This document shows, piece after piece, positions 3,662 to 23,379 of a stretch of DNA of 64,000 bases. Below the pieces are notes generated by a model. The model worked only from the letters and a program-made list of their open reading frames with translations, was not told where the DNA came from and searched no databases. A program made the position numbers and the translations under genes. Origin of the DNA: a virus; IMG/VR virus record IMGVR_UViG_3300034107_000314, positions 1 to 64,000 of that record. One strand, written 5' to 3'. Each line of letters starts with the position of its first letter. Positions within the stretch are counted from its first letter, which is position 1.

Positions 3662-3662
3662 T

Positions 3663-4175: not shown

Positions 4176-4186
4176 AGGAGATATAA

Positions 4187-4402
4187 ATGGCAGACGTTAC
4201 ACAAAAAATTAAAAGTGGCAATGCACAACCTCAAGAGGGTCGCATTGTTCTTCAGGGGCAAAATGCATTCTTCAGTGGTTATCAAACTATCAACGCCCCT
4301 GTAAATAAAGGTTTAACTGTTGCACAATTTGAAACAGCCTTAGACTCTAGATTGGATCGTCCTCGTTATTACACATCAACACCTTCTGGATTACAGTATT
4401 AA
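4187..4402 (+). CDS. Small hypothetical protein
   Basis: Strong SD (AAGGAG) upstream; 71 aa. Confidence 0.7.
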   Translation: MADVTQKIKSGNAQPQEGRIVLQGQNAFFSGYQTINAPVNKGLTVAQFETALDSRLDRPRYYTSTPSGLQY

Positions 4403-4404
4403 TT

Positions 4405-4914: not shown

Positions 4915-5530
4915 AGGAAATATTAAACTTATTGATTCTAGTTCTAAAATATCATCTAATATATTAAAAGCTTTAACAGATGAATTAAAAACTATTATCG
5001 CTAAGAAGAGACCAAAGATAGAATCAGAAATTAAAACAGTTATTAGATCAGCTTTATTAAAATCTCCTGAAATACAATCCCTAAAGGACGGTATACTAAA
5101 ATTTGATTTTGGTTTAGATTTTGACCCCTCTGATGAATTAGTAAATGCTATTATTAATGCCACCTATGTATATTTTAGATCTTTTAGATTAAATTTAAAT
5201 GGGGCATCGAACGCACTGAGTATTTATATCCAACCCTCTGATTTCTCCAACTTGCTAAGTAATAATTTTGCTCAAATCACTACAGAAAAAGGCGTTAGTT
5301 TGCCTTGGTTGCAATGGTTGTTAACAGAGGGTGATGCAATCGTAGTAACTCAATATAGTGTAGAATATGGGCCAAGCTCGTCTAGTCGTTCTGGTGGTGC
5401 AACAATGAAAGTGGGAGGAGTCTTTAAAGTTAATTCAGCTTTCTCTGGTACAGTTGATGATAATTTTATTACTCGCGCTTTAGAAGGTTATCAAGATAAA
5501 ATTCAACAGATTATAAGGGACAATATATGA
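4904..5530 (+). CDS. Putative neck/tail-completion protein
   Basis: Synteny; LPWL.WLL..G and NFITRAL C-terminal motifs. Start reassigned to the ATG at 4904. Confidence 0.5.
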   Translation: MNLKGNIKLIDSSSKISSNILKALTDELKTIIAKKRPKIESEIKTVIRSALLKSPEIQSLKDGILKFDFGLDFDPSDELVNAIINATYVYFRSFRLNLNGASNALSIYIQPSDFSNLLSNNFAQITTEKGVSLPWLQWLLTEGDAIVVTQYSVEYGPSSSSRSGGATMKVGGVFKVNSAFSGTVDDNFITRALEGYQDKIQQIIRDNI

Positions 5531-6504
5531 GTTATAATCCCGGATTAGTTGGCATAGAAAATACTCAAGATTCAGCACTTTCTAATATTTTGCTAGATAA
5601 CTTTGTTGCATTCTACGACTGGGGTTTGATGGATAAAGGTGGTTTTTCTAATCTTACAATACCAAATTCAGGAATGTATGGTGGGTCAAAAACAACTTTA
5701 AGAATTGCACAAGACCCTAATTATCCCAATGGAAAAGTATGGCAAGCATTTAAAGAAAACTGGGTGTGGGAAACGGGCATATCAAAAACAACACAACCTA
5801 TACAAATTTCTGGTGTATATGTAAATAACAATTTCATACCCTATACATACAATGCAACTTCAGGATATTATGTTGGAGCTGGCCCATCTGGTTATAGAAT
5901 TAATTATCCTGATGGAAGAGTGATATTTAATAATGCAATACCGACAAGCTCTACTGTGCAATTAAACTATAGCTATAGATGGGCTAAAGTAGACAAAGCT
6001 GAAGGTGTTCCATTTTTTAGACAAATTCAAAATAATAGTTTAAAAATAGATCAGAACTTTCTTACTGGTTCTGGTGAGTGGGCGCAGCTGGGGCAAACGA
6101 GGGTTCAATTACCAGCAATTTTTGTAGAAGTTGTTCCTAATAGAACGTATCAAGGTTTACAGTTAGGTGGTGGCCAATGGGCAAATACAGATATTCTATT
6201 TTATGTATTATCTAATCGTGAATCGGATTGTTCAAATATACAAAATATTATTTCTTATCAAAATGATAGGATTATAACATTATTCAACAGCAATAAAATA
6301 TCAAAGAGTGGGGCATATGGATTATCTTTTAACGGCAATCTATCGGATAAGAAATACTCCTATCCTTACTTATTAGAGAATTACCCCTATCAATCGTGTA
6401 CTATAAGAGATACAAAAATTAATAATATAGCTCAACTATCGGTTGATTTTTATATCGGAACTGTTAGGTGTTCAACTCAAGTAGAATTGACATCTTTAAC
6501 TTAA
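5527..6504 (+). CDS. Putative tail terminator protein
   Basis: Immediately upstream of the tail tube gene; V.LPAIFVE....Y...QLGGG motif. Confidence 0.5.
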   Translation: MSYNPGLVGIENTQDSALSNILLDNFVAFYDWGLMDKGGFSNLTIPNSGMYGGSKTTLRIAQDPNYPNGKVWQAFKENWVWETGISKTTQPIQISGVYVNNNFIPYTYNATSGYYVGAGPSGYRINYPDGRVIFNNAIPTSSTVQLNYSYRWAKVDKAEGVPFFRQIQNNSLKIDQNFLTGSGEWAQLGQTRVQLPAIFVEVVPNRTYQGLQLGGGQWANTDILFYVLSNRESDCSNIQNIISYQNDRIITLFNSNKISKSGAYGLSFNGNLSDKKYSYPYLLENYPYQSCTIRDTKINNIAQLSVDFYIGTVRCSTQVELTSLT

Positions 6505-6507
6505 AAA

Positions 6508-6522
6508 TGTGTATAGCTTAAT
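6508..6522 (+). promoter_or_regulatory. Putative phage late promoter TGTGTA-N5-TAAT
   Basis: TGTGTA TAGCT TAAT in the gap before the tail tube gene; same motif at 9911, 36793 and 63463 (- strand). Confidence 0.6.
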
Positions 6523-6566
6523 AGCTTAAAGCTTCCTTAATATAGATCTATAACGGAGAACAAAAC

Positions 6567-7610
6567 ATGGCAAATAATCGTATTTTTTATGCAGTCCAAG
6601 CTTTAGGAATTGAATCTCCTAGTGCTAGTGGAAACGGTATCCCTCTTATGGAAGATACTGGTAGTGGCACTATCACTTGGATGAAGGGTGTTCAGAGTGT
6701 TGGTATCACCACAAATTTCAATCTTGAACAAGCTTTTGAACTTGGCCAACTTGCTATTTATGAAAACATTGAAAATATTCCTGAAATTGAAGTGACAGCT
6801 GAAAAGGTTATTGATGGACACGAATTACTTTACTTAACCTCTTGTCCAAGTGGAAATGCAAATATTGTTGTTGCGTCTAATCAAAAAGCTGGTGTTTATC
6901 TAGCTATTTATAATGATGCATTGACATCTGCTAGTGGAACAACAGGTGCTGTTGGAATTGTTTATTGCTCTGGTATGAGACCAAGTACTGTTAGTTATAC
7001 ATTCCCAGTTGAAGGTAATTCCACAGAATCCATCACTCTTGTTGGCAATGATAAAGTTTGGGTAACTGGAGTTCCTCAGTCTGGAGTGACTGGTGGAGCT
7101 GGAGTTAATTTAGGCTCTGGAAACTACCCAGTGTTTCCGGGTATTGACGGCACTGCCCAGTCTCCAACTGGAACAATATTCCGTAGACAGCACTTTGTTA
7201 CTGCTAGCTCTCAATTACCGAATGAAATTAACGTTGCTACAAGTTCTGGTAAAATCCAAAGTATCAGCGCTAGCGTTGATCTTGGTCGCGAAAATATCTT
7301 TGAACTTGGCTCATTCCGTCCATATACAAAGTTCACTTCATTCCCTGTTGCTACAACTTGTGATATTGAAGTCATTTCTTTGAGTGGCGATAGAGTCAAT
7401 GCGGCTGGATCTGGTGGCAATTTGTCAAATAATGAGATTAAATTAATGTTCTTAAATGGTAGCAGATGGCTCAAAATTGAACTAGGTTCTCAAAATAAAC
7501 TGACAAGTGTTAACTATACAGGTGGGGATGCTGGTGGTGGTAATGCTACTATGACATTCTCATATCAAGGCTTTAATTCCTTTAAAGTCTCCACAGGCGT
7601 CCAATCATAA
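6567..7610 (+). CDS. Major tail tube protein (internally duplicated tube domain)
   Basis: Position upstream of the chaperones and TMP; GGAG SD; two related halves (GVQSVGITTNFNLEQAFELG / KIQSISASVDLGRENIFELG). Confidence 0.8.
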   Translation: MANNRIFYAVQALGIESPSASGNGIPLMEDTGSGTITWMKGVQSVGITTNFNLEQAFELGQLAIYENIENIPEIEVTAEKVIDGHELLYLTSCPSGNANIVVASNQKAGVYLAIYNDALTSASGTTGAVGIVYCSGMRPSTVSYTFPVEGNSTESITLVGNDKVWVTGVPQSGVTGGAGVNLGSGNYPVFPGIDGTAQSPTGTIFRRQHFVTASSQLPNEINVATSSGKIQSISASVDLGRENIFELGSFRPYTKFTSFPVATTCDIEVISLSGDRVNAAGSGGNLSNNEIKLMFLNGSRWLKIELGSQNKLTSVNYTGGDAGGGNATMTFSYQGFNSFKVSTGVQS

Positions 7611-7629
7611 AAATAGTTAGGCTATTAGG

Positions 7630-8670
7630 ATGGATAACAAGGATTTTTTAATGTATCGCATAATGAAAGGCCGTCTCCGCTTTTGCAGGGACGGTCTTTT
7701 CTTATATATCAAAGAACCGACCCCTGATACTATGTATGAGTCTATTGCAGTTTATCAGGAGTTTTACGATAAGGCATATGGATCTGGCGCTTTTTTAAAA
7801 GATGAGATATCAGAAATATTAATGGATAAAAATCTATATTCTCCATTCGACGATCAAGATATTGAGAAATATAAAAAGGATATAGAAGAATTAAAACATG
7901 AATGCTACAAAAATTTTCATAGACAAAAAGAATTATACGGTATAAAATATCTTATTAAAAAGACAGAAGATATGATTAATAAGATTTATAGGAAAAAAAA
8001 TCAGTTAGATCATATCACATGCGAAGGCGTAGCGTCACTAGCGCAATGGAACTGGATTATTGAACAGTCAACATATTATGTAGATACAGATAAACTATAC
8101 GATTGGCAATCTTTAAGTCTAAGTACAGTGATGGGAATCTATGAGGATTCTGTAATATTAACTGAAGATTTTAGAGCTATAGCAAGATCAAACAGCTGGA
8201 GACCTATGTGGAATTTAGGAAAAAAAACCGGAGATTTATTTTCTAATCCATCTTCAATGCTTACTAGGGATCAAATCATGTTAGCATCATTCTCTTCTAT
8301 GTATGATTCTGTATATGAAAGTCCAGAAAGCCCTCCAGAAAAAGTTATAGAAGATGATGATTGTTTAGACGGGTGGTTTATTGATCAAAGAAAGAAAAAT
8401 GAAAAATATAAAAAGGAACAAGAGGCCGAAACTATTATCACTAATAAAAAAATAGCAAACTCTAGTGAGATATTTATAGTTGCTCAGACTCCTCAAGAAA
8501 TAGATTATATTGATTCATTAAATAATATTCAGGCGAAGCAGGTAAAGAGGGGAAGAATGGATCAGTTGATGGAAAAGGGGACAATTAAGGACATTGAGTT
8601 TAATGATGTGTTACTTGATTTGCAAGTACAACAAAATAGTAGTATTATTAATAGAGCTAAAGGAAAATAA
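7630..8670 (+). CDS. Tail assembly chaperone (long, GT-like form)
   Basis: Lies between the tube gene and TMP; N-terminal half aligns by eye to 9025..9909. Confidence 0.6.
   Translation: MDNKDFLMYRIMKGRLRFCRDGLFLYIKEPTPDTMYESIAVYQEFYDKAYGSGAFLKDEISEILMDKNLYSPFDDQDIEKYKKDIEELKHECYKNFHRQKELYGIKYLIKKTEDMINKIYRKKNQLDHITCEGVASLAQWNWIIEQSTYYVDTDKLYDWQSLSLSTVMGIYEDSVILTEDFRAIARSNSWRPMWNLGKKTGDLFSNPSSMLTRDQIMLASFSSMYDSVYESPESPPEKVIEDDDCLDGWFIDQRKKNEKYKKEQEAETIITNKKIANSSEIFIVAQTPQEIDYIDSLNNIQAKQVKRGRMDQLMEKGTIKDIEFNDVLLDLQVQQNSSIINRAKGK
7666..7700 (+). terminator. Intrinsic terminator-like hairpin inside the 5' end of the next gene
   Basis: AAAGGCCGTCTC-CGCTTTTGCA-GGGACGGTCTTTT; GC-rich stem plus T tract just downstream of the tail tube gene. 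Confidence 0.6.
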
Positions 8671-8671
8671 C

Positions 8672-9022
8672 ATGGATAATCTTTCAAATTATTTAAAAAA
8701 ATCTTTTGAATTAAAGCAGCGGGGAGAAGAGAAGCGCAAAGAAATGTCCAAAGATAAACTTTTTGGCATTGCTAAGAAAAAAATTCAAACTACAATGATT
8801 GGATCAATATCTAGCATTGAAAATAACTTTGGATTTTTATGGGATGTGGAAAATCCTACTTCAGAACAAAAACAGCTGAAGAATATTTTTGAAGAACTGC
8901 GGTCGGAAATCCTTGATCGTGGTAATACACAAATAAGGAACTTGGAAAATGAGTTTACTCATTATGAAATTTCATGGAAAAAGTATACCATGAATTTACC
9001 TTTTATTAAACGAGGAGAATAA
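8672..9022 (+). CDS. Hypothetical protein (tail assembly region)
   Basis: ATG at 8672 (MDNLSNY) right after the upstream stop, with an AAGGA SD. Confidence 0.7.
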   Translation: MDNLSNYLKKSFELKQRGEEKRKEMSKDKLFGIAKKKIQTTMIGSISSIENNFGFLWDVENPTSEQKQLKNIFEELRSEILDRGNTQIRNLENEFTHYEISWKKYTMNLPFIKRGE

Positions 9023-9024
9023 CT

Positions 9025-9909
9025 ATGTCAGAAGGATTAAGGACGGTTGTTGAAGGTGATGTTACGGTTCTTGTTAAGAAACCAACCCGTAAAGACCTTA
9101 ATGAATCTCAAATTGTTTATAATAAAGCATGGAGAAAGTCTCTTGAGGAAAACGCTATTCTCCGTCAAAAATTAAATGATTATTTAATTGAGCAGGGCGT
9201 ATGGAGTGATGCTAAGCAAAAGCAATATGAAGGATATATTACAAAGATTAATGATAGAGAGCTTTTAATTAAAAAGGGTGGTATTCCACTTAAAAAGGCA
9301 AAAGCTATCGCTCTTGAATTAAGAAAGCTAAGAACTGAATTCAGAGAATTAATCGCAGAGCGAACAGGATATGATAATAATACAGCCGAAGGCACAGCAG
9401 ACAATACAAGGTTTGATTATCTAGTCTCTGTGTGTGTACTTGACCCATCTACCAAACAACCTGTGTTCAAGGATGTTGATGATTATAATGAACGGGGCAA
9501 TGAGCCTTGGGCAGTTAAAGCTGCTAGCGAGCTTGCTAATTTCTTATATAATCTTGATCCTAACTATGAAAGTAATCTTCCTGAAAATGATTTCTTGAAG
9601 AAGTTTAAATTTACGGATGATAAGGGTAGATTGATTAACAAAGATAAGCATCTTATCTCAGTTGATGAAAATGGAGTCGAAAGACTTATTGATGAAGACG
9701 GTTATTTCATAGCGTATGAAGCAGATGGCACGAAATACTACATCAATAGAGAAGGTCATAGGGTTGAAAAAGATGAGGATATTGTTAAGCAACCGTTCTT
9801 GGATGATGATGGCAATGCTATTGATCCAGATGCAGTTGAGTCCGAACCTGAAGAAAAGCCTCCAGAAGTTGTTAAAACTAAAAAAAAGAAAGCTGATTCT
9901 ACTGAATAA
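9025..9909 (+). CDS. Tail assembly chaperone (G-like form)
   Basis: GAGGAG SD; directly precedes the TMP; paralogous to 7630..8670. Confidence 0.6.
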   Translation: MSEGLRTVVEGDVTVLVKKPTRKDLNESQIVYNKAWRKSLEENAILRQKLNDYLIEQGVWSDAKQKQYEGYITKINDRELLIKKGGIPLKKAKAIALELRKLRTEFRELIAERTGYDNNTAEGTADNTRFDYLVSVCVLDPSTKQPVFKDVDDYNERGNEPWAVKAASELANFLYNLDPNYESNLPENDFLKKFKFTDDKGRLINKDKHLISVDENGVERLIDEDGYFIAYEADGTKYYINREGHRVEKDEDIVKQPFLDDDGNAIDPDAVESEPEEKPPEVVKTKKKKADSTE

Positions 9910-10012: not shown

Positions 10013-13000
10013 ATGGCTCAAAAGTTCACAATAACTGCTGAATTAAACTTACAAACTAAAAATTTAAGTCAGGTTGTCAACAATTTAAAGCAGCAGTTCC
10101 AAGGGGCCAATTTAAATATTAAAATTAAAGATTTGGCCGCTGCTGAATCTTCAGTTCGTAATATTTCTAAAGGTGCTAAAGATGCTCAAAAATCTTTCTC
10201 TTCTTTAGGTGGAAGTATAGCGGCAGCAGCAAAACGCTTCTCGGCTATTACTCTTGCCACAGGAACCTTCGTTGGCTTAACTAGAGCTATTAAAAATTCT
10301 ATTGGTGCAGCTATTGAATTCGACAGAGAAATGATAAAAATTTCTCAAGCGACTGGAAAAACAGTTAGCCAATTACAAAGCTTAAAAAATGAAGTTGGTA
10401 GTGTAGCATCTACTTTTGGTGTTTCATCTAAAGAACTTATAGAAGCTGCTAGAAATTTAACTCAAGCTGGCTTTGCCGCTGATAAAGTTTCTGGGTCATT
10501 AAAATTATTAGCCCAGACTGACTTAGCAGCTACATTCGATTCTATCGCTGATACCACAGAAGGCGTGATCGCAGTTTTGAGTCAGTTCGGTAGACAAGCT
10601 ATGCAATCGGGTACTGAAGTACAGTTCCTTGAGAAGTCTTTATCTGCAATTAATCAAGTTTCTAAAGAATTTGCTGTTGAGTCTGGAGACTTAATCACAG
10701 CTATTAGAACTACAGGTTCTGCTTTCGAAACTGCTGGCGGTAGTCTTGATGAATTAATTGCATTATTTACATCGGTTAGAGCAACAACACGCGAATCGGC
10801 TGAGAGTATCGCAACGGGTTTTAGAACAATCTTTACAAGAACTCAACGTCTTGATACAATTAACAATCTTAAAAAATTGGGAATTGAATTACAGGATGCT
10901 GAGGGTAAATTCGTTGGCCCGATGGAAGCTGTTAAAAGATTAAGTATAGCCCTCAATACTATTGATCCTAAAGATTTTAGATTCAATCTCATCGTCGAAC
11001 AGTTAGGTGGATTTAGACAAGTTTCTAAAGTTATTCCGCTTATTCAACAATTTGCCACTGCTCAAAAAGCTCTTAGTGTAGCGCAGGGCGCTAGTGGTTC
11101 GTTGGCAAAAGATGCCGCAACCGCACAACAATCATTGTCAGTACAAATACAAAAGACAAGAGAAGAATTTTCTAGATTTATTCGTGAACTAACCGAGAGT
11201 AAAACCTTTAAGGATACTGTCGGCTTTTTGCTAGACATGGCTAACGCTTTTATTAAAGTGGCAGATACGTTAAAGCCATTGATACCTATGATTGCTGGAT
11301 TTGGCGCTATAAAATTAGGCCAGAGTTTGCTTCCGGGTATACAGTCACTCGTAGGAGCTAAGAAAAAATCCCAAGGCGGTAGAGTTCATGCCTTTGCTAG
11401 TGGTGGCGTTGTTCCCGGTCACGGTAATGGTGACACAGTTCCGGCTATGCTTACTCCGGGCGAGTTTGTTATTAGAAAAAGTTCTGTTAAGAAATTGGGT
11501 GCTGATAATTTAGCTAGAGCTAATAAATATGGCATAGGTGGCGAAGTACAATATTATAAAGAAGCTGGCGAAGTAAAAGAAAACGACCCCAACAAAAGAG
11601 ATATATCCAAGGTTCAAGAAAATATCAAAGCTGTAAAGTATACAACACAAGAAAGAGCGGAATCTAAAAATATCGCAGAAGGCGATTTGCCGATGGTGGG
11701 GAAAAAGGGAGAAACAAAAAAGAAAGCTATACCATTTGATATCGGTGCAGCGTTCTTAAGACCGGGAGGTAGAAAAGCAGACACCACTGGCTTTGTACCT
11801 ATACCAAAAGACCAAGAGATAGCTCAAGCAGCATCTAGCACAATATTAGGCGAAAAATTCTATCAAGGTTTTAAAGATTCAGACAAAGAAGGCGAAAGAG
11901 GTGTATATTATAAATTACACTCTAGGTCACTCGCTGATCCCGCCTCAACACAAATAGAAAGTAAAATACAAAGTAAAGTCATTGAAGCTGTTGATGAGTC
12001 TGCTGATATAGTTTCAAATATGACAGGCGTCAAAGCTGACGATGCTCAACTAGGAAAAATATTAAAAAAGGCAAACATAGATCAAGTTAGTGGTAATATC
12101 TTTGAAGCCATGTTGCTTAATTTAAATGCTCCATTTGACTCAGCAGATACTTCTTCAGTTTCTTTTGACTTTAAAGAAGGTTTAGGAAATGTAGCTGGTC
12201 TATTTGACGATGCCCAAAGCTTAGTTTCAAATCCTACAGATGCCAGAAATTCTTTCACAACAGATTCTATTAAAAAAATTGCTCCAAAAATTACAAACTT
12301 AGTAAAAGAAGAAGTGGACAAAGTAGATCTTAAACAGCTTACTGCTGAAAAAATACCATATTTAATAAATGCGGATAAAACAGGCGGGGGTCTTCGTTTG
12401 TCAGATTACACTTCTTTAACTGGTAAAAAAAGTGCAACAACTGATGAGATTCAAGCAAGTTTAAATAAAGCTGGATATACTCTAAAACCCACAACAAAGG
12501 GTAGATATTCTATTGTCAAAGGGGTAGCAGAAGATGAAGAATTTGCAATGGGTGGCTCTCCATCAGGCTCAGACACTGTTCCAGCCATGCTTACTCCCGG
12601 CGAATTCGTTATTAATAAAAAGTCTGCTCAAAAAATTGGTAGCTCTGCTTTAAATAAAATGAATAAAGTTGGTAAGTTTGCCGATGGTGGCCCCGTTCAA
12701 TATTTAAATCCGGGTGGAAATGTTGGAAAGTTTGGGAAAGTTTCGGGCGCAACTGCTCTTGGTGGAGCTAAAGCTAGCCCGTTCCAAGCGTACTCAACTA
12801 AGGCTGCTGGGTTTAACCCGCCTCCATCAGGTCCACCAAATAACCCTAGCTCCAACGCTGCCGCCTCTCAAGCTAGTCAAGCTTTACAAGAAGTTGGAAC
12901 AGCTGCAACATCGCTAAAAGATCAGTTAAACGCAGTGATCGAATCAACTTCAAACGCTGGGGCTGGAATTTTTCTTTTAGGATCTGCGATCTCTTCGGTC

Positions 13001-16000
13001 ACTGCTCAAATGTCAGGTATGGACAAAGCATATGCCGATAGTATTACAGCATTCACTGGAACCTTTTCTACAATATATGGTATTGGACAGTCATTAAAAA
13101 CTACTGGTGCTAGCTTTGCTGCGAATATAATTACTAATAAAAGATATAAAGATTCTATTGATAAAGATACCCAAGCCTTAAACGCTCACAGTAAAGCCCT
13201 GAGTGCTGATAGTGGAACTCCGGGGGGTGGTGGAAATGATAAATATGTTGCTAAGTTCACTACAGCTCTTAAAATTGCTGATGGGGCTATCACGGGCTTT
13301 GCAATTGCTTCTGCTGCTCAGTCGGCTATAGTTGCTTATCAAACTGCTAAAGCGGAGAAAGAAGCTGATAAGCTTAGTAAGGCTATGGATAACTTTACTA
13401 AGAATCTAAGCAATGAGGCAGAGGTTCGTTCAGGAATGAACAGAACTTTACTCGCTTCCGAGAAAGCCCAAGCAAGGGCGAATGCAGCTAGTGGTACGGG
13501 TGCAATGGCGGGTGGTGGAATTGGGGCATTGATAGGAGGCGCTCTTGGTAGTTTGGCTGGTCCAGTTGGCGCTCAAATCGGCGCTACTCTTGGTAGCAGC
13601 ATCGGAACAACCATAGGAGCAGAGTTCTCTAACTCTTTTGATCAAGCTAAAGTTACGCAAGCTGCAACTCAATTAAGCGATGCTTTCTTGACCTCAACAC
13701 GGGGCGTAGACTCTCTTAATAAGTTTATGACAAACATAGACAAAGCAAGCACTGGCGATGTCGAGAAAGAATTTGGAAAAGTTTCAGTAGAGCTTGCAAG
13801 AGCGCAAACAGCTTTAAACTCTTTTGATCCTAAAGTTCTTGAAACTGGTTCTGAAATAATGAAGGCTCAATTTAATAAAGCCGCAGAAACAGTTGCTAAT
13901 TTTCAAAATGGACTTGATAAATTAACTGGCGCTCTCATTGGAAAATACGCTAAAGATATTCAAACAGCTGCATCTGTTGGAAAAATATTAGATATTCAAC
14001 CCTTTGTAGATAAATTTACAGCTGGCAAATCTCAGGAAATTAAAGCTAAATATGCGCCACAAATCGAAAGGGCAAAAACTCCAGTTGAAAAAGGTGAACT
14101 GCAAAAACTTGGAAATCAAGAATTAGCAAAAGCAACCGCAGAATATCAAAAGACTTTACTGCAAGTTAAGTTACAAACTCTAGCTCAAGAACGTGCATTA
14201 GTTTTAGAAAGACAGACCAGAGAAAAGATTATCGGTACGTTAAATGAAGAAATTGCACTGAGAGCAACTCTTGAAAGATTTAATGCAAGCGTTGAAAAGG
14301 CTAGTAGAGCTTCTGATCAATTGGATGCCGCTTTTAGTGATAGCGTTCAGGGACTCAAGTCATCTGCCCCAGATCCTTCTGTGTTCGATATGGAATTCCC
14401 AGATACTAGTTCATTAAATGAAGCAATGTCTGTATTGAGTTCTGTGGGGCCGATTGGAGAGAAATTAGCTACGAGCTTACTAGACTTAAATAAAATTTCA
14501 TTAGGCTTAGGGCCAGCTCTTGAAGCTTTAACGGCTAAGAGTTTTGGTAGTGGTAATATTGATGACGAAATTAAAAAAGTTGTACAAGACGCTTTTGGCG
14601 TAGATGTTGGAAGTGCTGTTGGCGAAAGATTAGTAAAAATTATCAGTGAGCAATTTAAAGGCGTCGATCAAGAAAAAGGTGGGGTTCAGGGCGCGATTGA
14701 CCCTAAGAAAATTAAAGAACAGTTCGAAGGACTTGCTAAAGAGATCAGAGAAAAGGGCAAAGGTATTGCCACTGCCCTCAATGAAGCTGATAATAAAAGA
14801 AGAGCTATCGCGGATAAGATTAATGAGAGTGAGAAAAGAAAATTAGACCTGACTAATCAAAGTATTGATTCCTATCAAAGATTAGTTGAATCTGTTGCTC
14901 AAGCTCAAGGTAGGCCAGTTTCCTTGCTTGAGAAGAACTCTATGAGATTTGCTAAGCAAGTTGCTCTTCTTGGTAAAAACGCTAATAAAAGTATTCCGCA
15001 AATTGGTAAAGATCTTAGCAATGCTAGAAAGTCTCTTAGCTCTGGGCAATTTAAAAATGATCCTATGAAGCAAGCAGAGGTTTCTCGTCAAGCTTCTAGA
15101 TTACAAGAATCTCTCAAGAACTTAGCTGATCAATCTGGTAGAACAAAAGATACACTTAATGAATTAGAAAAATTCAAAGCTCAAAGAGAACAAATACAGC
15201 AAAATTTAACTGACTATGCTTTTGGTACTACAGAAGATAGACAAGGAAAAGATGAGGTAGCGGCAGCGACTAACCAAGCACTTCAAACGGGTGATATCAA
15301 TTCTATTGAAGGCCCAATGAGAAAAGAAGTTCTTGGAATGTTGGATAGCATGGGCGAATTTGGCAAGCAAGCTAAAAAGCAATTAACAGCTAATTATTTT
15401 GCGGGTCAAGGAAATCAACAACTTGCACAAGCAGCTCTAGCTGAATCATCTACTCCAGAACAAGCTTTGATTGGTGAATTATCAACTATTTACCAACAAG
15501 AAATTGCTGCTCAAAAAGAATTGATGGCTTTAGAGAATAGTTATAGCCAAGATCAGATAGCTGAATATCAAAAAATTACTAATCAGATCGCAACATTAAA
15601 TCAAACCCTTGCAGATACGTTAGCTGAGGTTAGAGCGCCAGCAGATAAAGCTGTTGCAGCGGTTGGAGCGCCAGTTCCAAAATTAACTACTGATACTATT
15701 GACGCTGAAACAACTAAAATCAATGGGCAGCTTAAATTATTAGACGCTTCAATTATAACATTCACTGCAAACATTGATAAGATTAATGCTGTTCTTGCTA
15801 AAGTAGAGACTCAGAAAAAAGCACAAGGCGGCTTAATATATAAAGCTGATGGTGGGAATATATTCCAGCCAAAGGGAACTGATACTGTTCCTGCAATGCT
15901 TACGCCGGGTGAATTCGTAATGAAGAAAAGTGCAGTTGATAGAATTGGCGCTGGTAATCTTAGTGCTATGAATAAAGGTTATGCTAAGGGTGGGAAAGTT

Positions 16001-19000
16001 GGTTACTACGCTGATGGTGGATTAGTTGACCCTAAAGTACAAGAGCGTATAGACAAAGCTAAAACAGAAGAAGAAAAATATGACCTTGCCAAAGGATATG
16101 CTAATTCTAAAAAGAATGCAATAGATATCAAAACTGAACAGCCCGGCGCTTTTGGTAGATTGATGGGAAGAAAAGCTGAGCCAGATTATAGCTCTTTGAA
16201 AAAAATGATGATAGGCGTAGGCAAAAAGGCAGATGGGTCTTATGAAAATCAAGTTTCATTAGAATCAATATTAAAAGGTGGAGCTGCAAATTTATTTAAG
16301 ACCAAAGAAGGGTTCCAAGGTGGCGATGTATTTGCTAGGGAATTATCTGATGACGACCAAGCCAGAGCTTTAGCTTTCACAGATGCTTCTTCGGGTGCTA
16401 TTCCTAGTTTTGGTAGGGGTGTATTACAAGGTATGACATCTATACCATTCGTAGATATTGCATCTATTATTGGTAAAGGTATGGGTATAGACATAGATAA
16501 ATTAGAATGGCAAGGAAAGCCAATAGGCAGTCTAAGTAAAGCTAGCTTATATGATGTAGTTGCTAGAAGTTATTTACCACCAGCTCCAACTGATGAAAAT
16601 TCAAAATACTGGGAAGACTGGGGTCTTGAAGGTGGTAAACTACTCAATCCTCTTGAATGGTTAACTGGATCTGTTGCCGCTGGAGCCGGATCAAAATTAA
16701 TGAAGTTTGTTGCTACTAAAGGTATTGTAGGTAGAACAGTAGCTAAGGCTGCAACTAGTGGAAGTAGCTTTATCTTTAAAGCTATTGATAATGTTATAAG
16801 CGCCCCTTTTAAAGCGATTGGTGGAGTGGTTAAAAAGGGATTGGGTATGGGTGCTAAAAAGGGTGGTTCTGAGTTAATTCAAGAAGGTGGAGAAGCTGTA
16901 TTAAAAAGTTCTATAGATGCTCCATTAAAGAGATTAACTGCGGATCAAATCAAAGAAAAAGTTGCAAAAGAAGCTATAGAAAAAGAAGCAAAAGAAAAAG
17001 CTGCAAAAGAATTAGCCGAAAAGCAAACAAAAGAAACAGCAGAACAAGTACAGAAGCAAGCAGCTTTAGAGGCAGAACAGAAAAAGGCTTTAGAACAAAC
17101 AAAGAAACAAAAAGCTCAAGACTCTGCTGAAAATATTAAAAAGGAAAAAGGGTCTGATACGACTATGGATGAGGATTGGGCTAAGGCTCAAGCAGAAGGT
17201 AAAACTATCAAACCTCAAGGTGGAAGTGCAGTAAAGGGCGCGATGATACTCTCCGCTGGAATTTCTGCGGCAGTTACACCAGAAATGGCTACGCCTACTG
17301 TTGCGCCTCCAATTGCTCCATCCCAACTAGAAACTCCTCCAGAAATGGCAGCTCCAGTAACTGAAGCAGCACCTGTAGCTGAAGTTAAACCAGCTGAAAC
17401 TGCTCCTGCTACCACAGAAGAAGCTAAAAAGAAAAAGAAGAAACGTAGAAGAGGTGTGAACCCTAATGCTATGATGCCTATGATGGGCATGGGCATACCT
17501 AATTGGATACAACAGGCTACAGCTCAGGCTCAGGCAGCACAACAGAAAGCTCAAGGCGATTGGTTTAATTTTATGAATCAAGGGCCGCAAGTTATTGCTG
17601 GTCCGGGATTTAGATATTTTGCATCTGGTGGCATGGCTAAAGGTACTGATACTGTTCCTGCTATGCTTACTCCCGGTGAATTTGTTATGAATAAATCTGC
17701 TGTTGATAAGCACGGCGTTGGAATGATGCAGCATTTAAATTCAGGTGGAGAAGTTAAATATTTATCTGGGGGCAGTTTTGTTGGACCACAACAACCAGAA
17801 GATGATTATAATTTAAGTAGAAGCGAAATGACTAGTGAATCAATCAGAACAGGATTGTCTCCTTCTGAACTGAGCGATCAAAGAGATAAATACACAGCAA
17901 AAAGGGATGCTGAAAGAGCTAAAGCAAAAAGTATAATGGATAAAATCCAAAAGGACAAAGCGGATAAAGCTAGTGCAGCAAAAGCTCAATCTGCGGCAGG
18001 AGCTGCTGTTGGAGGCATACTTGATCCTAGTTCTGGATTTGCTAGCTGGGATAAAAATAATAAATTCCTACCTCCGGGAATGGGTCCATCATCGACTCCA
18101 GCTCCAGCCGCTACTGCTGCTCCAGCTAGTCCTGCACAACCCGCTAGAAATGAAAATGCCCAAAGAACACTAGCTTCAAGAAATAAAAGAAGGTCTGGTT
18201 CGGGCGATATTAATGTTGGTAGCATGGCAAATAACGCTATGGTAAACGCTGGACAACAACAAGGTCCGGGATCTTTAAACGCTCTAAGAGAAGTAGCTCA
18301 AAGAAGAGCGTCTGAAGGTAAGCCTCCTGCAACACCCGCAATAACCCCTCCTGCTGCCGCTGCTGGTGCTGCTGGTGCTGCTGCCGCTGCAATGACCCCT
18401 ACTGCTCCTGTTGCTGGCGCAGCCGCTACTGGTGCTGCTGGGGCAGCTGCCGCTCCTGAAGCTCCAAGAAGACCTTCTACGCAAAAGGGTGGAGGTCCGA
18501 TGAGAGATAGAGCAATTCAAGCGAATGCTGCTATGAAGGCTAATAGAATGGGTTTTCAACAAATGATGATGAATCGTAATAGACCAATGACCCGCTCACA
18601 AATGATGGCTGGGGGTGGAGCTGCTAATCCAGCTGCTGAACAACAAGCACAACAAGCGGCGGGTGGTCAAGGGGCTGGAACCAAAGAAGGACAAGCTGCC
18701 CAACAGTTACAAAACTCAGATACACAAGCGGCTAAGGGTGGTGGTAATGCACCAGATATGAGCGCTTTTGCTTCTAGTGTAGAATCCCTTAATCAAGTTG
18801 CTACAACCTTCTCTACTTTTACTGAAACCCTATCCAACCTTGCAAAATCTTTTTCTGGATTAACAGTGACGCATACAGTGACAGTTGACGGTAGTATAAA
18901 TGTTAATGGGGTTAATGCCACTACTATATCAGATTTAATTTCCAAGAATTTAACAGCAGTAATTGGCGCAGAAGTAACAAAACAAATCAATTCTATTAAG

Positions 19001-19006
19001 AAGTAA
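10013..19006 (+). CDS. Tail tape measure protein (2997 aa)
   Basis: TP901-type TMP N-terminal domain (A.EFDREM..I....G.....L..L...V; ESAESIATGFRTIF.R), Ala/Gln/Lys-rich helical composition, and four GG...DTVPAMLTPGEFV modules. Confidence 0.92.
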   Translation: MAQKFTITAELNLQTKNLSQVVNNLKQQFQGANLNIKIKDLAAAESSVRNISKGAKDAQKSFSSLGGSIAAAAKRFSAITLATGTFVGLTRAIKNSIGAAIEFDREMIKISQATGKTVSQLQSLKNEVGSVASTFGVSSKELIEAARNLTQAGFAADKVSGSLKLLAQTDLAATFDSIADTTEGVIAVLSQFGRQAMQSGTEVQFLEKSLSAINQVSKEFAVESGDLITAIRTTGSAFETAGGSLDELIALFTSVRATTRESAESIATGFRTIFTRTQRLDTINNLKKLGIELQDAEGKFVGPMEAVKRLSIALNTIDPKDFRFNLIVEQLGGFRQVSKVIPLIQQFATAQKALSVAQGASGSLAKDAATAQQSLSVQIQKTREEFSRFIRELTESKTFKDTVGFLLDMANAFIKVADTLKPLIPMIAGFGAIKLGQSLLPGIQSLVGAKKKSQGGRVHAFASGGVVPGHGNGDTVPAMLTPGEFVIRKSSVKKLGADNLARANKYGIGGEVQYYKEAGEVKENDPNKRDISKVQENIKAVKYTTQERAESKNIAEGDLPMVGKKGETKKKAIPFDIGAAFLRPGGRKADTTGFVPIPKDQEIAQAASSTILGEKFYQGFKDSDKEGERGVYYKLHSRSLADPASTQIESKIQSKVIEAVDESADIVSNMTGVKADDAQLGKILKKANIDQVSGNIFEAMLLNLNAPFDSADTSSVSFDFKEGLGNVAGLFDDAQSLVSNPTDARNSFTTDSIKKIAPKITNLVKEEVDKVDLKQLTAEKIPYLINADKTGGGLRLSDYTSLTGKKSATTDEIQASLNKAGYTLKPTTKGRYSIVKGVAEDEEFAMGGSPSGSDTVPAMLTPGEFVINKKSAQKIGSSALNKMNKVGKFADGGPVQYLNPGGNVGKFGKVSGATALGGAKASPFQAYSTKAAGFNPPPSGPPNNPSSNAAASQASQALQEVGTAATSLKDQLNAVIESTSNAGAGIFLLGSAISSVTAQMSGMDKAYADSITAFTGTFSTIYGIGQSLKTTGASFAANIITNKRYKDSIDKDTQALNAHSKALSADSGTPGGGGNDKYVAKFTTALKIADGAITGFAIASAAQSAIVAYQTAKAEKEADKLSKAMDNFTKNLSNEAEVRSGMNRTLLASEKAQARANAASGTGAMAGGGIGALIGGALGSLAGPVGAQIGATLGSSIGTTIGAEFSNSFDQAKVTQAATQLSDAFLTSTRGVDSLNKFMTNIDKASTGDVEKEFGKVSVELARAQTALNSFDPKVLETGSEIMKAQFNKAAETVANFQNGLDKLTGALIGKYAKDIQTAASVGKILDIQPFVDKFTAGKSQEIKAKYAPQIERAKTPVEKGELQKLGNQELAKATAEYQKTLLQVKLQTLAQERALVLERQTREKIIGTLNEEIALRATLERFNASVEKASRASDQLDAAFSDSVQGLKSSAPDPSVFDMEFPDTSSLNEAMSVLSSVGPIGEKLATSLLDLNKISLGLGPALEALTAKSFGSGNIDDEIKKVVQDAFGVDVGSAVGERLVKIISEQFKGVDQEKGGVQGAIDPKKIKEQFEGLAKEIREKGKGIATALNEADNKRRAIADKINESEKRKLDLTNQSIDSYQRLVESVAQAQGRPVSLLEKNSMRFAKQVALLGKNANKSIPQIGKDLSNARKSLSSGQFKNDPMKQAEVSRQASRLQESLKNLADQSGRTKDTLNELEKFKAQREQIQQNLTDYAFGTTEDRQGKDEVAAATNQALQTGDINSIEGPMRKEVLGMLDSMGEFGKQAKKQLTANYFAGQGNQQLAQAALAESSTPEQALIGELSTIYQQEIAAQKELMALENSYSQDQIAEYQKITNQIATLNQTLADTLAEVRAPADKAVAAVGAPVPKLTTDTIDAETTKINGQLKLLDASIITFTANIDKINAVLAKVETQKKAQGGLIYKADGGNIFQPKGTDTVPAMLTPGEFVMKKSAVDRIGAGNLSAMNKGYAKGGKVGYYADGGLVDPKVQERIDKAKTEEEKYDLAKGYANSKKNAIDIKTEQPGAFGRLMGRKAEPDYSSLKKMMIGVGKKADGSYENQVSLESILKGGAANLFKTKEGFQGGDVFARELSDDDQARALAFTDASSGAIPSFGRGVLQGMTSIPFVDIASIIGKGMGIDIDKLEWQGKPIGSLSKASLYDVVARSYLPPAPTDENSKYWEDWGLEGGKLLNPLEWLTGSVAAGAGSKLMKFVATKGIVGRTVAKAATSGSSFIFKAIDNVISAPFKAIGGVVKKGLGMGAKKGGSELIQEGGEAVLKSSIDAPLKRLTADQIKEKVAKEAIEKEAKEKAAKELAEKQTKETAEQVQKQAALEAEQKKALEQTKKQKAQDSAENIKKEKGSDTTMDEDWAKAQAEGKTIKPQGGSAVKGAMILSAGISAAVTPEMATPTVAPPIAPSQLETPPEMAAPVTEAAPVAEVKPAETAPATTEEAKKKKKKRRRGVNPNAMMPMMGMGIPNWIQQATAQAQAAQQKAQGDWFNFMNQGPQVIAGPGFRYFASGGMAKGTDTVPAMLTPGEFVMNKSAVDKHGVGMMQHLNSGGEVKYLSGGSFVGPQQPEDDYNLSRSEMTSESIRTGLSPSELSDQRDKYTAKRDAERAKAKSIMDKIQKDKADKASAAKAQSAAGAAVGGILDPSSGFASWDKNNKFLPPGMGPSSTPAPAATAAPASPAQPARNENAQRTLASRNKRRSGSGDINVGSMANNAMVNAGQQQGPGSLNALREVAQRRASEGKPPATPAITPPAAAAGAAGAAAAAMTPTAPVAGAAATGAAGAAAAPEAPRRPSTQKGGGPMRDRAIQANAAMKANRMGFQQMMMNRNRPMTRSQMMAGGGAANPAAEQQAQQAAGGQGAGTKEGQAAQQLQNSDTQAAKGGGNAPDMSAFASSVESLNQVATTFSTFTETLSNLAKSFSGLTVTHTVTVDGSINVNGVNATTISDLISKNLTAVIGAEVTKQINSIKK

Positions 19007-19011: not shown

Positions 19012-22000
19012 ATGGACCACAAAACATCAGCTAGAGGATTAGGATTAAATATAAGAGGATTAGATGTTAGATCTGGAATTCTAAGCACAATGCCACTTAG
19101 AGTTCAGGCTGAAAATGCCACATATATACCTCATAAAAATAATACAGATTTTACAGTTTCTAACCCAGCTCTTATTAACTATACTCCTTCTGGCATTGCT
19201 AATATTATATTAAATGATTTTTCTTCTAATAAATATGATTCATTTTTTTCATCAAACCAAGGTAAAAATTCTAATGAATATGAACTAGAATGTAGTTGGT
19301 ATATTAACGATATAGATATTGAAGATGATATAGCTATTGTTGGCACTAGAGACTGGACTAGTACTGAGAAATATACCACTATTAAATATTATCCAACTAT
19401 AGTATCTACCGATGTAATATCAAATGTAGCTATACAAAAGACTGAAGACGTAGAAGATAATATAGTCACTTGTAATATATATAACTGGACTGTGAATTGG
19501 GCCACTGCGAGCTTGACATATGGTTCAGGTTATGTTATTATCAACAGTTTTAATTGTGATGGTTCGCAAACTACAACCCCTATATACTTGCCCCCCGGAA
19601 GCACGGGTTCTTTATCTTCCTCTTCTACCGCTAAACCTACATATAGTTTAAATGGTTCTTGGACTAACGACCCCTTAGATCCGGGTGGATTTATTAATTC
19701 AGGACTTTTATCTAGTGAAACAATTACTACTAGTTGTCCAATAGATACGTATAGATACACAGACACTAATTATAGAAATAGAAAATACTGTTTAAAAAAT
19801 ACATTTTCTCATTACGTTCCCAATGCAGATTATCCTGATATCGATGTGTTTACATATTTTAATATTAAAAATTTAAATAGTATTTTTCAAAAACCAAAAT
19901 ATTTAAACAACAGACCCGCAGATAAAAATGTTCAAGGCAATCAATTAAGCTCTAATACTCCATTAGGTAAATACCCAACATATCCTAAAGAATTTCCAGA
20001 CTATAGTGATATTTTCATCCAAGTTGATTACGTCAAATCCACGGGTGGTCTTAGTACCTTAACGGATAATATAGTTATTACATCTGGCATGGATAGTAGG
20101 TATATATATACATTTGGTGGATTTTTAAGTTATAGCGACTATACATTAAAATGCTCTACCCTATCTAGATCTAATTATAGTACAAAATCTAAAGATCTTA
20201 TAGCAGATGATGAAGACTATAAATGGTATATGGTTTATAGAGATACTTCGGGGGATTATGAGTTCTTGACATTGAGTTCATATATTATTCCAAGTTCAGT
20301 ATTAACAACTTCTGCATTAAATACTAATTTTAGTAAAGTCCCCCTAGTTGATAATAGATTTCATAAAATCTTTAATCCTCCTGTAGATATTGGCAATAAA
20401 TTAGATCCTACGACTGGAGGCACATATCTAGTAGAAAATAGTGTGATATCAGCCGATAGTATCAAAGTTATTAAAGTTGCTAATTATGGAAATTGTGGCA
20501 AAGTTGATATATATACTAAAAAGAACGGTAATGTATTGTCAATTAGCGGAAATCAAATTACCTCATCGGGACATGGATTGAATACGGGCGATTCGATAAA
20601 GATTACTTCTGCGTTAAATTCAACATCTGGATTAACACCGTTTAATGGCATAAGATATGTTAGTGGAGTATCTTCTGATAAGTTTGCTATATATTTAGAT
20701 CAAAACTTTAAAACTCCAATTAGTGGAACTGTAAGATCAACAAGCGGTATATTATGGAGTGCATTAGATAAGAGCAACTGGAAGTATAACGGAACTCTAT
20801 ATTCGCCTCAAGGTAAAAATGGATATGGGTTTTCTTCAAAATTAAGATTGGTATCTGAGACAGGTGTTGAATCTTCTAATATCGTTGATCGTGCAATAGA
20901 ATCTAGCACTACTGATGACACATTTACTAAACCTCAAGCATATTTAAATAGCTGGGTTTCGTGGAATAATTTTTATCCATTCGAAAGGGCTACATCTAGC
21001 GAAGCTTCAATAACATTAGAGAATGGGAATAAATTTGGTGCAGACTGCCAAATCTCTAAAGTTTCAGATAATAATTATGTATTAATGATTACAGAACCGG
21101 GGGCAGAAGTATCTTTTAAAATATTTGATGATTTCATCATATCAAGTCAAAGCACTTCTCCAACACAATCTACAGAACCTTTGCCAAATAATCAATTTGT
21201 AATACCTAATTTTCTTCCGCAGGGCAGAGTGCATTTTTACAAAATGACAAAATCTCCATATTCTATTGAATATATGACATCAGTAGCAGCAACTGGCAAT
21301 CCTTGGAAAGCATATGAAGATCTTAATCAGGCACATAAAAGTAAATCTAATATAGATAGCTATACTAATTATCCAATTTCTGTAGAAAAAGTAAAATCTA
21401 ATTATTCAATAACTTATGATAATTATTGGCTTGGTGCTAAATACTATAGTTGGAAAAATAGTCAATACATCTTAGATACTACTTATGGCATCGAAGTACC
21501 TGATCAATCTAATAGCATTAATCGTTATGCCTTTTCAGATAGTTTTGGAAAAGCCGCCGCCTTTGATTTAGATGCTTCGAATAACCATTTATATTGTGTT
21601 GCAACAACAAATGTAAAAAATAGTGATTACAAAAACAGTCTTAGAGTATTTGAAGTAGATTGTTTAGCTGAAGCTTTTAGTATAAATTTAACTAATACTG
21701 GAATTTCATCTTTAAGTGGAATTAGCAATCAGTCTTCATTCTTTTCGTCTCTTGCTCAAGAACACTCTAATGAAATATCTAAATACGGATCAAATGTGGA
21801 TTTTGATGACAGTCGATTAATAATTGGCTGGCCATCTGACAAAAGAGGATTAGAGTATTTATATATTTATGATAGAATTGGATCTGGATATGAACCAATC
21901 CAAACAATTACTAGCGGTGGAAATAATAATTTTGGAGAATATTTTGTTGCAGATAATGATTTCTTGGTTACAAATAGATATTCCGATATTGATGACTCTG

Positions 22001-23379
22001 GAAATGTTACAGACCCATTGAATTACGTATACGTTTATGAACGCGATGCTAGGACTAATAGATATTTATACATGCAAAGAATATCTCCAACTATAGATTT
22101 AACTAAAGATCAGTATCAATCATTAACATCTGATGCATATATACTAACTTCAAATTTGTCATATGATAATACCACAAATGACAGCGCTACGTTAACATCA
22201 GATTTATATGGTAAATATGATATCTATGATAATTCATTAATCGTAAGAGATTATAACGAACATGCATATTTTGTATACAACTCCAATGATAATAAATTTA
22301 TTTGCAGAAGTCACAATTTAGTATCAGATACAGATCTGCTAACTACTTTTGGTGTATTGAGAATGAGGCCCAGTAGCTCGTCTCTATCTAATGGATCTAC
22401 GGGCGAATTCATTGAATCGTTAGAAGTCATGGAAGGAACTCAATTTTTATCAACTGCTAGAATTATCACTAAATCATACCAGAATCCAAATTATTTACCT
22501 CTATTTATGAAAACTACAGAGGGTTATAGTTCTGGCGAATTATATTTAAGTACATATGGTAATTTATTATATGATCCTAAACCTACTGGACTTAGTTTAT
22601 ATATTCAATCTCCACAGCCGCATACGGGTGGAATGACACTATTTGCTAAACAATACGATGAATATGCTAGCGGTATGAATTTATTTTTAAAAGCTATTGA
22701 ACCATACAGCACAGGATTTCCGTTATTTATTAAAAGTAACTTCACTGAAACTGAATTTACACTTGTAATGAATCCAAATTTTGTTAATTATTTTCCATTA
22801 TATCTCAAAACATTTGAAGCTCAAACTCTAGAATTTGATTCAAGTGGAAATCCTACAGGAAATACTATTGAAATTGAATTAGAGGATATTGGATTCAACG
22901 AAGGATCATTTGATCTATTTATTGAAAACTACCATACGGGCGTTCCTAATGGGTGGAATAATATGAATCTCGCCATGAAGACATACCCTTATATGGATTT
23001 TGGTAGAAATTTAAATTTAACAATAGGTCAAAGTCCACCAGTAGCTTCTAGTGGTTTAGAGTTATTCCTTTGCAATCCTAGTGGCACTACACCTAATTCT
23101 AGCGGAGGAAGCTTTGGTATATCTAATTTGTATTTACAAGGGCCAGAACGAGTAAATGGCTACGATTATTCAAATTCAATTAATTTATTTATGAAAAGAA
23201 TTATGGATGTCGAAATGCCTTTATTTGTGTATAATACATATACTAGTGGAGGATTAGATACTTATATACGTGGTGGTATACCTTTTACTGGGGGAATGGA
23301 TCTATATATGTCTGGAGTATCATCTCCTATTAATACTTCAGATTCTGGAACACTTTATATAGCTGGGACTGTATTATAA
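19012..23379 (+). CDS. Large tail-associated protein (FG-GAP-like propeller motifs, C-terminal short repeats)
   Basis: ITSSGHGL.TGD.I.I domain, repeated (F/Y)G..V..D....IIG.P motifs, and ~20 hxL(F/Y)h repeats at the C-terminus. Confidence 0.6.
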   Translation: MDHKTSARGLGLNIRGLDVRSGILSTMPLRVQAENATYIPHKNNTDFTVSNPALINYTPSGIANIILNDFSSNKYDSFFSSNQGKNSNEYELECSWYINDIDIEDDIAIVGTRDWTSTEKYTTIKYYPTIVSTDVISNVAIQKTEDVEDNIVTCNIYNWTVNWATASLTYGSGYVIINSFNCDGSQTTTPIYLPPGSTGSLSSSSTAKPTYSLNGSWTNDPLDPGGFINSGLLSSETITTSCPIDTYRYTDTNYRNRKYCLKNTFSHYVPNADYPDIDVFTYFNIKNLNSIFQKPKYLNNRPADKNVQGNQLSSNTPLGKYPTYPKEFPDYSDIFIQVDYVKSTGGLSTLTDNIVITSGMDSRYIYTFGGFLSYSDYTLKCSTLSRSNYSTKSKDLIADDEDYKWYMVYRDTSGDYEFLTLSSYIIPSSVLTTSALNTNFSKVPLVDNRFHKIFNPPVDIGNKLDPTTGGTYLVENSVISADSIKVIKVANYGNCGKVDIYTKKNGNVLSISGNQITSSGHGLNTGDSIKITSALNSTSGLTPFNGIRYVSGVSSDKFAIYLDQNFKTPISGTVRSTSGILWSALDKSNWKYNGTLYSPQGKNGYGFSSKLRLVSETGVESSNIVDRAIESSTTDDTFTKPQAYLNSWVSWNNFYPFERATSSEASITLENGNKFGADCQISKVSDNNYVLMITEPGAEVSFKIFDDFIISSQSTSPTQSTEPLPNNQFVIPNFLPQGRVHFYKMTKSPYSIEYMTSVAATGNPWKAYEDLNQAHKSKSNIDSYTNYPISVEKVKSNYSITYDNYWLGAKYYSWKNSQYILDTTYGIEVPDQSNSINRYAFSDSFGKAAAFDLDASNNHLYCVATTNVKNSDYKNSLRVFEVDCLAEAFSINLTNTGISSLSGISNQSSFFSSLAQEHSNEISKYGSNVDFDDSRLIIGWPSDKRGLEYLYIYDRIGSGYEPIQTITSGGNNNFGEYFVADNDFLVTNRYSDIDDSGNVTDPLNYVYVYERDARTNRYLYMQRISPTIDLTKDQYQSLTSDAYILTSNLSYDNTTNDSATLTSDLYGKYDIYDNSLIVRDYNEHAYFVYNSNDNKFICRSHNLVSDTDLLTTFGVLRMRPSSSSLSNGSTGEFIESLEVMEGTQFLSTARIITKSYQNPNYLPLFMKTTEGYSSGELYLSTYGNLLYDPKPTGLSLYIQSPQPHTGGMTLFAKQYDEYASGMNLFLKAIEPYSTGFPLFIKSNFTETEFTLVMNPNFVNYFPLYLKTFEAQTLEFDSSGNPTGNTIEIELEDIGFNEGSFDLFIENYHTGVPNGWNNMNLAMKTYPYMDFGRNLNLTIGQSPPVASSGLELFLCNPSGTTPNSSGGSFGISNLYLQGPERVNGYDYSNSINLFMKRIMDVEMPLFVYNTYTSGGLDTYIRGGIPFTGGMDLYMSGVSSPINTSDSGTLYIAGTVL

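Follow-up and report, generated by a model that had tools for sequence, protein, structure and literature searches.

Phage tail tape measure proteins (TMPs) are generally seen as rulers and membrane channels. Some also carry peptidoglycan hydrolase motifs, and a role for such motifs embedded in mycobacteriophage TMPs was reportedly described by Piuri and Hatfull in 2006. The non-helical enzyme segments found inside mycobacteriophage TMPs and SPbeta YomI are hydrolases, unlike the inserts described here. We analyzed the TMP gene found in the first 64,000 nucleotides (hereafter, the window) of IMG/VR virus record IMGVR_UViG_3300034107_000314, the 155,259 bp genome of an uncultured phage, complete by CheckV. 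The 2,997-residue product contains four copies of a conserved module of ≈75 residues, which bracket two inserts, here called cassettes. We consider it probable that this is a modular TMP in which the modules are junctions that fence exchangeable passenger cassettes.

Several better-described systems share parts of this arrangement. The lambda TMP, gpH, is cut in a glycine-rich region after tail assembly, yielding gpH* (≈78 kDa) and gpHC (≈14 kDa); only residues 818–849 have been resolved, and gpHC is bound to the tail tip via its last ≈30 residues (PMC12617516, PMC10721106). In T5, pb2 is cut after R1127 during tail assembly, which separates the 92-residue muralytic fragment pb2C, to be released at a later stage (PMC10038345). 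The Thermus phage P23-45 protein gp96, of 5,002 residues, combines a TMP with a virion RNA polymerase that functions in the host upon entry, and is similar in being a giant TMP that carries a working enzyme (PMC10770324). However, the enzyme in gp96 is N-terminal and fixed, and the available text of that report mentions no repeated junction module or cassette exchange. The MuF polymorphic toxins represent another conserved phage virion scaffold, on which toxin or enzyme domains can be swapped, VIP2-type ADP-ribosyltransferases among them (PMC7302621), but there the scaffold is a head protein, the fusion is exclusively C-terminal, and there is no repeated delimiter. In the literature on TMPs, we found no description of a junction-module architecture with exchangeable slots. 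Enzyme-bearing TMPs and cleaved TMPs were already known; what appears to be new is that exchangeable slots are bounded by a conserved junction module, one that is common to lambda gpH and proteins from the hub region of cyanomyoviruses.

The TMP gene is a single uninterrupted open reading frame (ORF; local label P0001). The product matches PF10145 with an E-value of 3.5e-16 and a score of 60 bits (cut-off, 33.2), as well as five PHROG tape measure families (4211, 28, 1533, 167 and 1272), which identifies it as a phage tail TMP of the PF10145/TP901 type. The same assignment had been made in the original prediction, a model's reading of the DNA letters and translated ORFs, and agrees as well with the hydrophobic segments and shared C-terminal tail described below. 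The protein starts with a conserved N-terminal domain, followed by cassette 1 between modules 1 and 2, a presumably membrane-active body of ≈1000 residues, cassette 2 between modules 3 and 4, a linker and finally a tail that is expected to bind the hub. The two cassettes comprise 316 (527–842) and 511 residues (2010–2520), close to the ≈330 and ≈540 residues originally estimated.

The sequence DTVPAMLTPGEFV occurs exactly four times in the TMP, starting at residues 474, 854, 1957 and 2546 (nucleotides 11432, 12572, 15881 and 17648). The original prediction had described these four identical 13-mers, their diverged synonymous codons and a list of surrounding (F/Y)AxGG-type motifs, and all of this could be reproduced: the 39-nucleotide core copies differ from each other at 5–9 positions per pair, always at the third codon position and always synonymously, and every motif on the list is present. 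In all, the TMP contains 15 A.GG tetrapeptides, compared to 3.6 expected from its composition, and 8 of the 15 fall inside the modules, whose combined share of the protein length is 10% (binomial P = 3e-5).

The 13-mer is the core of the module, which spans 65–80 residues in an alignment of the four copies. It starts with an optional K-x-Q-G-G-x-I-Y sequence, followed by (F/Y)-A-x-G-G, a short spacer that ends in glycine, and the invariant core. After the core comes a short helix with the pattern x-K-x-A-V-x-K-x-G-x3-L-x2-M-N and then one or two (Y/F)-A-x-G-G-x-V units. While the core is 100% identical in the four copies, the hairpin-like, AxGG-bearing flanks of the module are only ≈50% identical. 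A profile of the repeat, run against the TMP, detected these four modules and no further ones. When the module was modeled alone in AlphaFold2 (137 sequences), the predicted local distance difference test score (pLDDT) was 62, and just the short helix was predicted; in a larger model that included module, cassette and module, the modules had pLDDT < 60. Because the scores are low both alone and in the larger model, the module is predicted not to be an autonomous domain, and it resembles a linear element that depends on a partner.

The module is widespread among phages. (The core motif served as the seed for the searches, and reading frames in the loci were taken from stop to stop.) At least 3,947 protein clusters matched the four-copy profile among 8,000 scored candidates, and most of them carry PF10145. 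The 120 best profile matches had two (19), three (96) or four (6) modules per protein, while module-bearing reading frames from IMG/VR, most of them 2,000–5,800 residues long, had 1–8. Four giant stop-to-stop frames of 5,273–5,799 residues (L025:2102-19498, L023:2123-17941, L028 and L035) contain 6–8 modules. Across the set, the distances between modules are bimodal, at ≈100–300 and ≈900–1,100 residues. The longer spacing is a conserved mode that fits the TMP body between modules 2 and 3; the pattern looks as if the body unit of ≈1,000 residues were itself repeated.

The module also matches 19 PHROG families, 13 of which are annotated as tape measure, mostly toward the C-terminal end of the profile. 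Together with lambda gpH, these families bear out the earlier remark that a single related motif is common near TMP C-termini. No Pfam family matched the module. Positions 268–304 of TIGR01541 (tape_meas_lam_C) matched it with an E-value of 6.4e-4 (19 bits, under the cut-off of 104.75); the module is the only part of the TMP that matches this family, and the TMP as a whole does not reach the cut-off. In the PDB sequence set, the module matched residues 725–798 of lambda gpH and residues 963–1036 and 1412–1458 of mycobacteriophage Douge gp16, with a weak match to residues 1014–1069 of JBD30 gp46. Two module profiles detected the lambda copy, A1 at 725–785 (E = 2.7e-6) and A3 at 728–798 (E = 4.7e-5). 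The module is an ancient junction element, homologous to lambda gpH 725–798. The exact core is also found in proteins of T4-like cyanomyoviruses encoded beside baseplate hub genes, including two cultured phages. In Synechococcus phage S-SCSM1, gp159 (L084:2177-5026), a large, annotated virion protein encoded near the gp26 and gp51 hub genes, has a module at residues 587–666, with a PF01832 glucosaminidase domain 30 residues downstream. SSM2_012 of S-SM2 (L085:2999-5296), also encoded near the gp26 and gp51 genes, has one full module with an exact DTVPAMLTPGEFV core.

The nearest neighbors of the four modules indicate how old they are. None of the 20–21 nearest neighbors listed for each module was another copy from the same protein. 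All 20 neighbors listed for module 1 are first modules of other TMPs, and among those listed for module 2 the nearest are second modules. The neighbors listed for module 3 are mostly penultimate modules, ≈400–600 residues before the C-terminus. Those listed for module 4 are mixed, with many last modules (≈185–195 residues before the C-terminus), but also first and penultimate ones. Because the modules are closest to modules in the same position in other phages, they are not recent duplicates; by this criterion, they are old, position-specific orthologs rather than freely shuffling repeats.

Comparison with relatives showed that whole inserts are exchanged at the modules. For the first slot, we compared 108 TMPs in which the N-terminal domain is followed by an insert between modules 1 and 2. 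In several pairs (P0015/P0024, P0036/P0039, P0011/P0015 and P0034/P0046), the first inserts are unrelated, while the N-terminal domains are 95–98% and the bodies 82–92% identical. In pairwise alignments, identity is lost right after the N-x-Y-A-x-G-G sequence that closes module 1, and is regained at the A-x-G-G sequence that opens module 2. The slot between the last two modules is more variable than the first: 47 TMPs yielded 36 sequence clusters. Between L013 and P0002, for example, the flanks of this slot are 87% and 93% identical, while the insert is only 23% identical.

The proposals that modules delimit variable inserts and may act as points of exchange were thus correct for the relatives, in which the breakpoints lie where module 1 ends and module 2 starts. 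The expectation of variable inserts in a conserved body held for the inserts only, as the body is ≈30% identical to those of relatives. The opposite outcome, inserts as conserved as the body, was seen in the sole close relative, P0122 (2,993 residues; 90% identical overall), where the inserts are 93% and the body 90% identical, but not in the wider set of relatives. Because the cassettes are as conserved as the body in P0122, they appear to be maintained parts of the protein and not junk.

The core of cassette 1 was predicted by AlphaFold2 to be a confident α/β domain, with pLDDT of 80–95. The cassette 1 family was found in 36–46 of ≈200 TMPs of the local set, always in the first slot. Its invariant sequences are G-x-I-F-E, which includes E698, and F-D-F-P-x-G, which includes D719, followed by P-T-D-A-K/T/R. 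Toward the end of the cassette there is a weak match to a winged helix. A search of the PDB with Foldseek, using the module–cassette–module model, returned no match at E ≤ 0.001, and a fold comparison in which cassette 1 was likewise part of a larger construct included no nuclease among the 50 VIA rows listed. Cassette 1 had no match in Pfam and no usable match in the ESM Atlas, and the profile of its core gave only a chance-level aspartokinase match against PDB sequences. Because neither a nuclease fold nor any other was recovered for the core, the resemblance to PD-(D/E)xK nucleases is a lead at the level of motifs only.

Cassette 2 is an orphan. It consists of an orphan region (2010–2320), a Lys/Glu/Ala-rich, helix-like stretch, a Pro/Ala-rich linker and the run KKKKKKRRR. 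The run is preceded by the Pro/Ala-rich linker and followed by a Met/Gln-rich stretch that leads into module 4. The only match to cassette 2 among 1.84 billion representatives was P0122; there was no match in Pfam or PHROG, and no relatives in the local set, viral contigs or metagenome contigs. A recognizable enzyme occupies a slot in P0049, a metagenomic TMP of 1,619 residues, which has a PF03496 ADP-ribosyltransferase domain at residues 1015–1164 (E = 8e-20), between its second and third modules (815–866 and 1202–1257). By eye, the first insert of P0039/P0040 has a DDGDTF...YDAYE pattern that recalls staphylococcal nuclease motifs, and P0005 has FVHELEH (HExxH) between modules 2 and 3; neither was confirmed by Pfam.

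Table 1. Features of the TMP gene. Coordinates are nucleotides of the window; residue numbers refer to the TMP.
Feature	Position	Strand	Basis
Tape measure protein gene, 2,997 residues	10013..19006	+	Single ORF; PF10145, five PHROGs
N-terminal conserved TMP domain, residues 1-447, PF10145 at 170-320	10013..11353	+	Alignments with relatives
Module 1, residues 448-526, core DTVPAMLTPGEFV 474-486	11354..11590	+	Repeat profile
Cassette 1, residues 527-842, predicted α/β domain and winged-helix-like end	11591..12538	+	Family alignment, AlphaFold2
GNIFE motif, E698	12092-12112	+	Cassette 1
FDF motif, D719	12161-12181	+	Cassette 1
PTDAR motif	12233-12250	+	Cassette 1
Winged-helix-like end, residues 770-837	12320-12523	+	Weak fold match
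Module 2, residues 843-906, core 854-866	12539..12730	+	Repeat profile
TMP body, residues 907-1931	12731..15805	+	Hydropathy scan; relatives' alignments
Module 3, residues 1932-2009, core 1957-1969	15806..16039	+	Repeat profile
Cassette 2, residues 2010-2520	16040..17572	+	Composition; between modules 3 and 4
KKKKKKRRR run, residues 2472-2480	17426-17452	+	End of cassette 2
Module 4, residues 2521-2595, core 2546-2558	17573..17797	+	Repeat profile
Low-complexity Ala/Gly/Pro/Gln/Met-rich linker, residues 2596-2879	17798..18649	+	Composition
Conserved C-terminal tail, residues 2880-2997	18650..19003	+	Iterative search

The remaining parts of the protein resemble those of other TMPs to varying degrees (Table 1). 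The N-terminal domain is the best-conserved part, with 47–69% identity to relatives in alignments that stop at module 1, and 98.7% identity to P0122; it is shared with SPbeta-type TMPs. The body has the features of a typical TMP body: a hydropathy scan detected three hydrophobic, glycine-zipper-like segments after module 2 (982–1001, 1091–1110 and 1163–1188), with a weak Gly-zipper match, and the rest is a long Ala/Leu/Lys-rich sequence. Its identity to the bodies of relatives is ≈29–30%. Most of the C-terminal linker had no homologs in searches of the local set. The last 118 residues matched the C-termini of 123 proteins of the local set (including the query) in an iterative search. In lambda, Douge, JBD30 and T5, the TMP is resolved only in its C-terminal 25–42 residues, which are bound to the hub (lambda, PMC12617516, PMC10721106; T5, PMC10038345). 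By analogy, the C-terminal tail is expected to sit in the tail-tip hub.

The ORFs that flank the TMP gene are all large and on the same strand. The 16 large ORFs that were scanned (1883–9909 and 19012–37798; up to 1,455 residues) had no Pfam match at E ≤ 0.01 and no match to a PHROG of known function; a single ORF (1883–3019) matched two families without an assigned function. Putative chaperone-like proteins are encoded at 7630–8670 and 9025–9909. As judged by these searches, the phage has a tail module only very distantly related to those of described phages.

How might such a protein work? The module would be a linear docking or maturation element that allows non-helical passengers to be spliced into a helical ruler. 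TMPs exit the tail before the DNA does, so that the cassettes would be passengers delivered to the host envelope or cytoplasm. Cassette 1 probably acts on DNA or holds it, given its putatively nuclease-like fold and possible winged helix. Finally, lambda gpH and T5 pb2 suggest, by analogy, that cutting may occur just before AxGG at some or all of the modules, although we advance this step only tentatively. The original prediction had likewise proposed a polyprotein in which the modules are processing or loading sites that release cargo; this part of it has support by analogy with lambda and T5 only.

The lambda module starts at ≈725, in the glycine-rich cut region, at the start of gpHC. This glycine-rich region (L087, residues 700–785) contains five AxGG sequences, at 707, 711, 718, 734 and 779. 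Cuts before the first four would yield calculated products of 77.4–79.8 kDa and 12.5–14.8 kDa, which fit the published sizes. We take a cut before AxGG at residues 707–734 as a testable guess on a 40-year-old question. In T5, the cut site in pb2, FVPR|AEGGMMY, lies directly before AEGG, a tetrapeptide of the type that edges the modules here. Neither protein has the complete arrangement: lambda gpH has one module and no cassette, compared to four modules and two cassettes here, while T5 pb2 has one C-terminal passenger and no bracketed internal slots. A lambda gpK-like, diglycine-directed maturation protease was considered, but both Prok-JAB and NlpC/P60 are absent from the 155-kb genome.

A stronger version of the proposal is that every module directs a cut before AxGG, making the module a portable maturation signal of siphoviruses and myoviruses and the TMP a true polyprotein. 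We find this doubtful. If it were true, the virion would hold at least five pieces, namely the N-terminal domain, a nuclease-like DNA-binding protein, a channel-forming body, an orphan of ≈55 kDa and a hub-bound tail, and the phage would inject them one after another before its DNA. The cleavage site of lambda gpH would follow from the same rule.

Several observations weigh against junctions that fence passengers, or against cutting at them. Only one of the 58 cassettes surveyed had a credible enzyme domain in Pfam (PF03496), and the others had nothing credible. Cassette 1 matched no nuclease by fold or by sequence in the PDB, the VIA rows listed or Pfam, and its third motif reads DAR rather than DxK, with lysine in only 9 of 17 aligned family members. 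The exact 13-mer was found in 347 of 576 modules, a figure inflated by the use of the core as the search seed, and in just 64 of the 149 modules that could not have seeded the search; the conservation is still real. The contrast drawn between variable inserts and a conserved body is too strong, because the body itself is poorly conserved. The lambda core lacks the D-T/S (the D-T of DTVPAML), and the gpH cut is unmapped and its protease unnamed (PMC12617516). Because neither site nor protease is established, lambda cannot prove that cutting occurs at modules. The module profile detected nothing significant in T5 pb2, so that the parallel with T5 comes down to four residues.

We also considered the possibility that the modules are assembly or structural contacts only and are never cut, leaving the inserts tethered as integral parts of the TMP. 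The partners could be the tail assembly chaperone, the lumen of the tube or hub, or other TMP chains, and cassette 1 could, for example, hold the leading end of the DNA near the head-proximal part of the tube. The core is near-invariant across siphovirus and myovirus proteins, as a binding motif should be if its partner is conserved, and the module is predicted to be disordered alone and was not resolved in the lambda and Douge maps. The frequent loss of the catalytic-type lysine from cassette 1, together with its winged-helix-like end, fits binding better than catalysis, and the inserts of P0122 equal the body in conservation. However, contacts alone leave unexplained why modules sit where the lambda TMP is matured, and why they adjoin hydrolase and ADP-ribosyltransferase domains, which would need freedom to act. 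Nor was a partner identified, the neighboring genes having no annotation from Pfam or PHROGs. Overall, we regard a purely structural role as the main rival, although a rather unlikely one.

Two other explanations fared much worse. The module could be a miniature self-cleaving protease of the LexA/signal peptidase (S24/S26) type, in which D-T/S-V-P-A-M-L..G-E-F-V would mimic G-D-S-M-x-P..G-D-x-V, the Thr or Ser would be the nucleophile, and AxGG would serve as the Ala-Gly-type site. The resemblance was seen by eye; the residue after the Asp does carry a hydroxyl (T in 91%, S in 5%), and AxGG lies 10–15 residues upstream of the core. However, the residue that would serve as the general base is K in 63% and R in 28%, the lambda copy has neither the Asp nor the Ser/Thr, the module is too short and predicted to be unfolded, and Peptidase_S24/S26 was unmatched in Pfam even at E = 5. 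With the Ser/Lys dyad not conserved and no autonomous fold predicted, we rejected self-cleavage of this type, and consider both the idea and its detailed scheme highly improbable. Identical 13-mers in one protein could also suggest recent copying, by internal duplication or as a gene conversion artifact, with the copies having no special role and the inserts being just fast-evolving TMP sequence. This is the least probable of the explanations: the cores differ by 5–9 synonymous changes per pair, the flanks have diverged to ≈50% identity, and hundreds of other proteins contain the exact core. Recent copying was excluded by the listed nearest neighbors, which are never copies from the same protein and are mostly same-position modules for modules 1–3 (mixed for module 4).

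With the modules read as junctions, the TMP follows a general grammar, in which one conserved module fences slots whose domains are swapped whole between close relatives. Provided that the passengers are delivered, giant-tailed environmental phages would have a large and mostly uncharacterized set of proteins that reach the host before phage gene expression, and these could include nuclease-like domains and ADP-ribosyltransferases.

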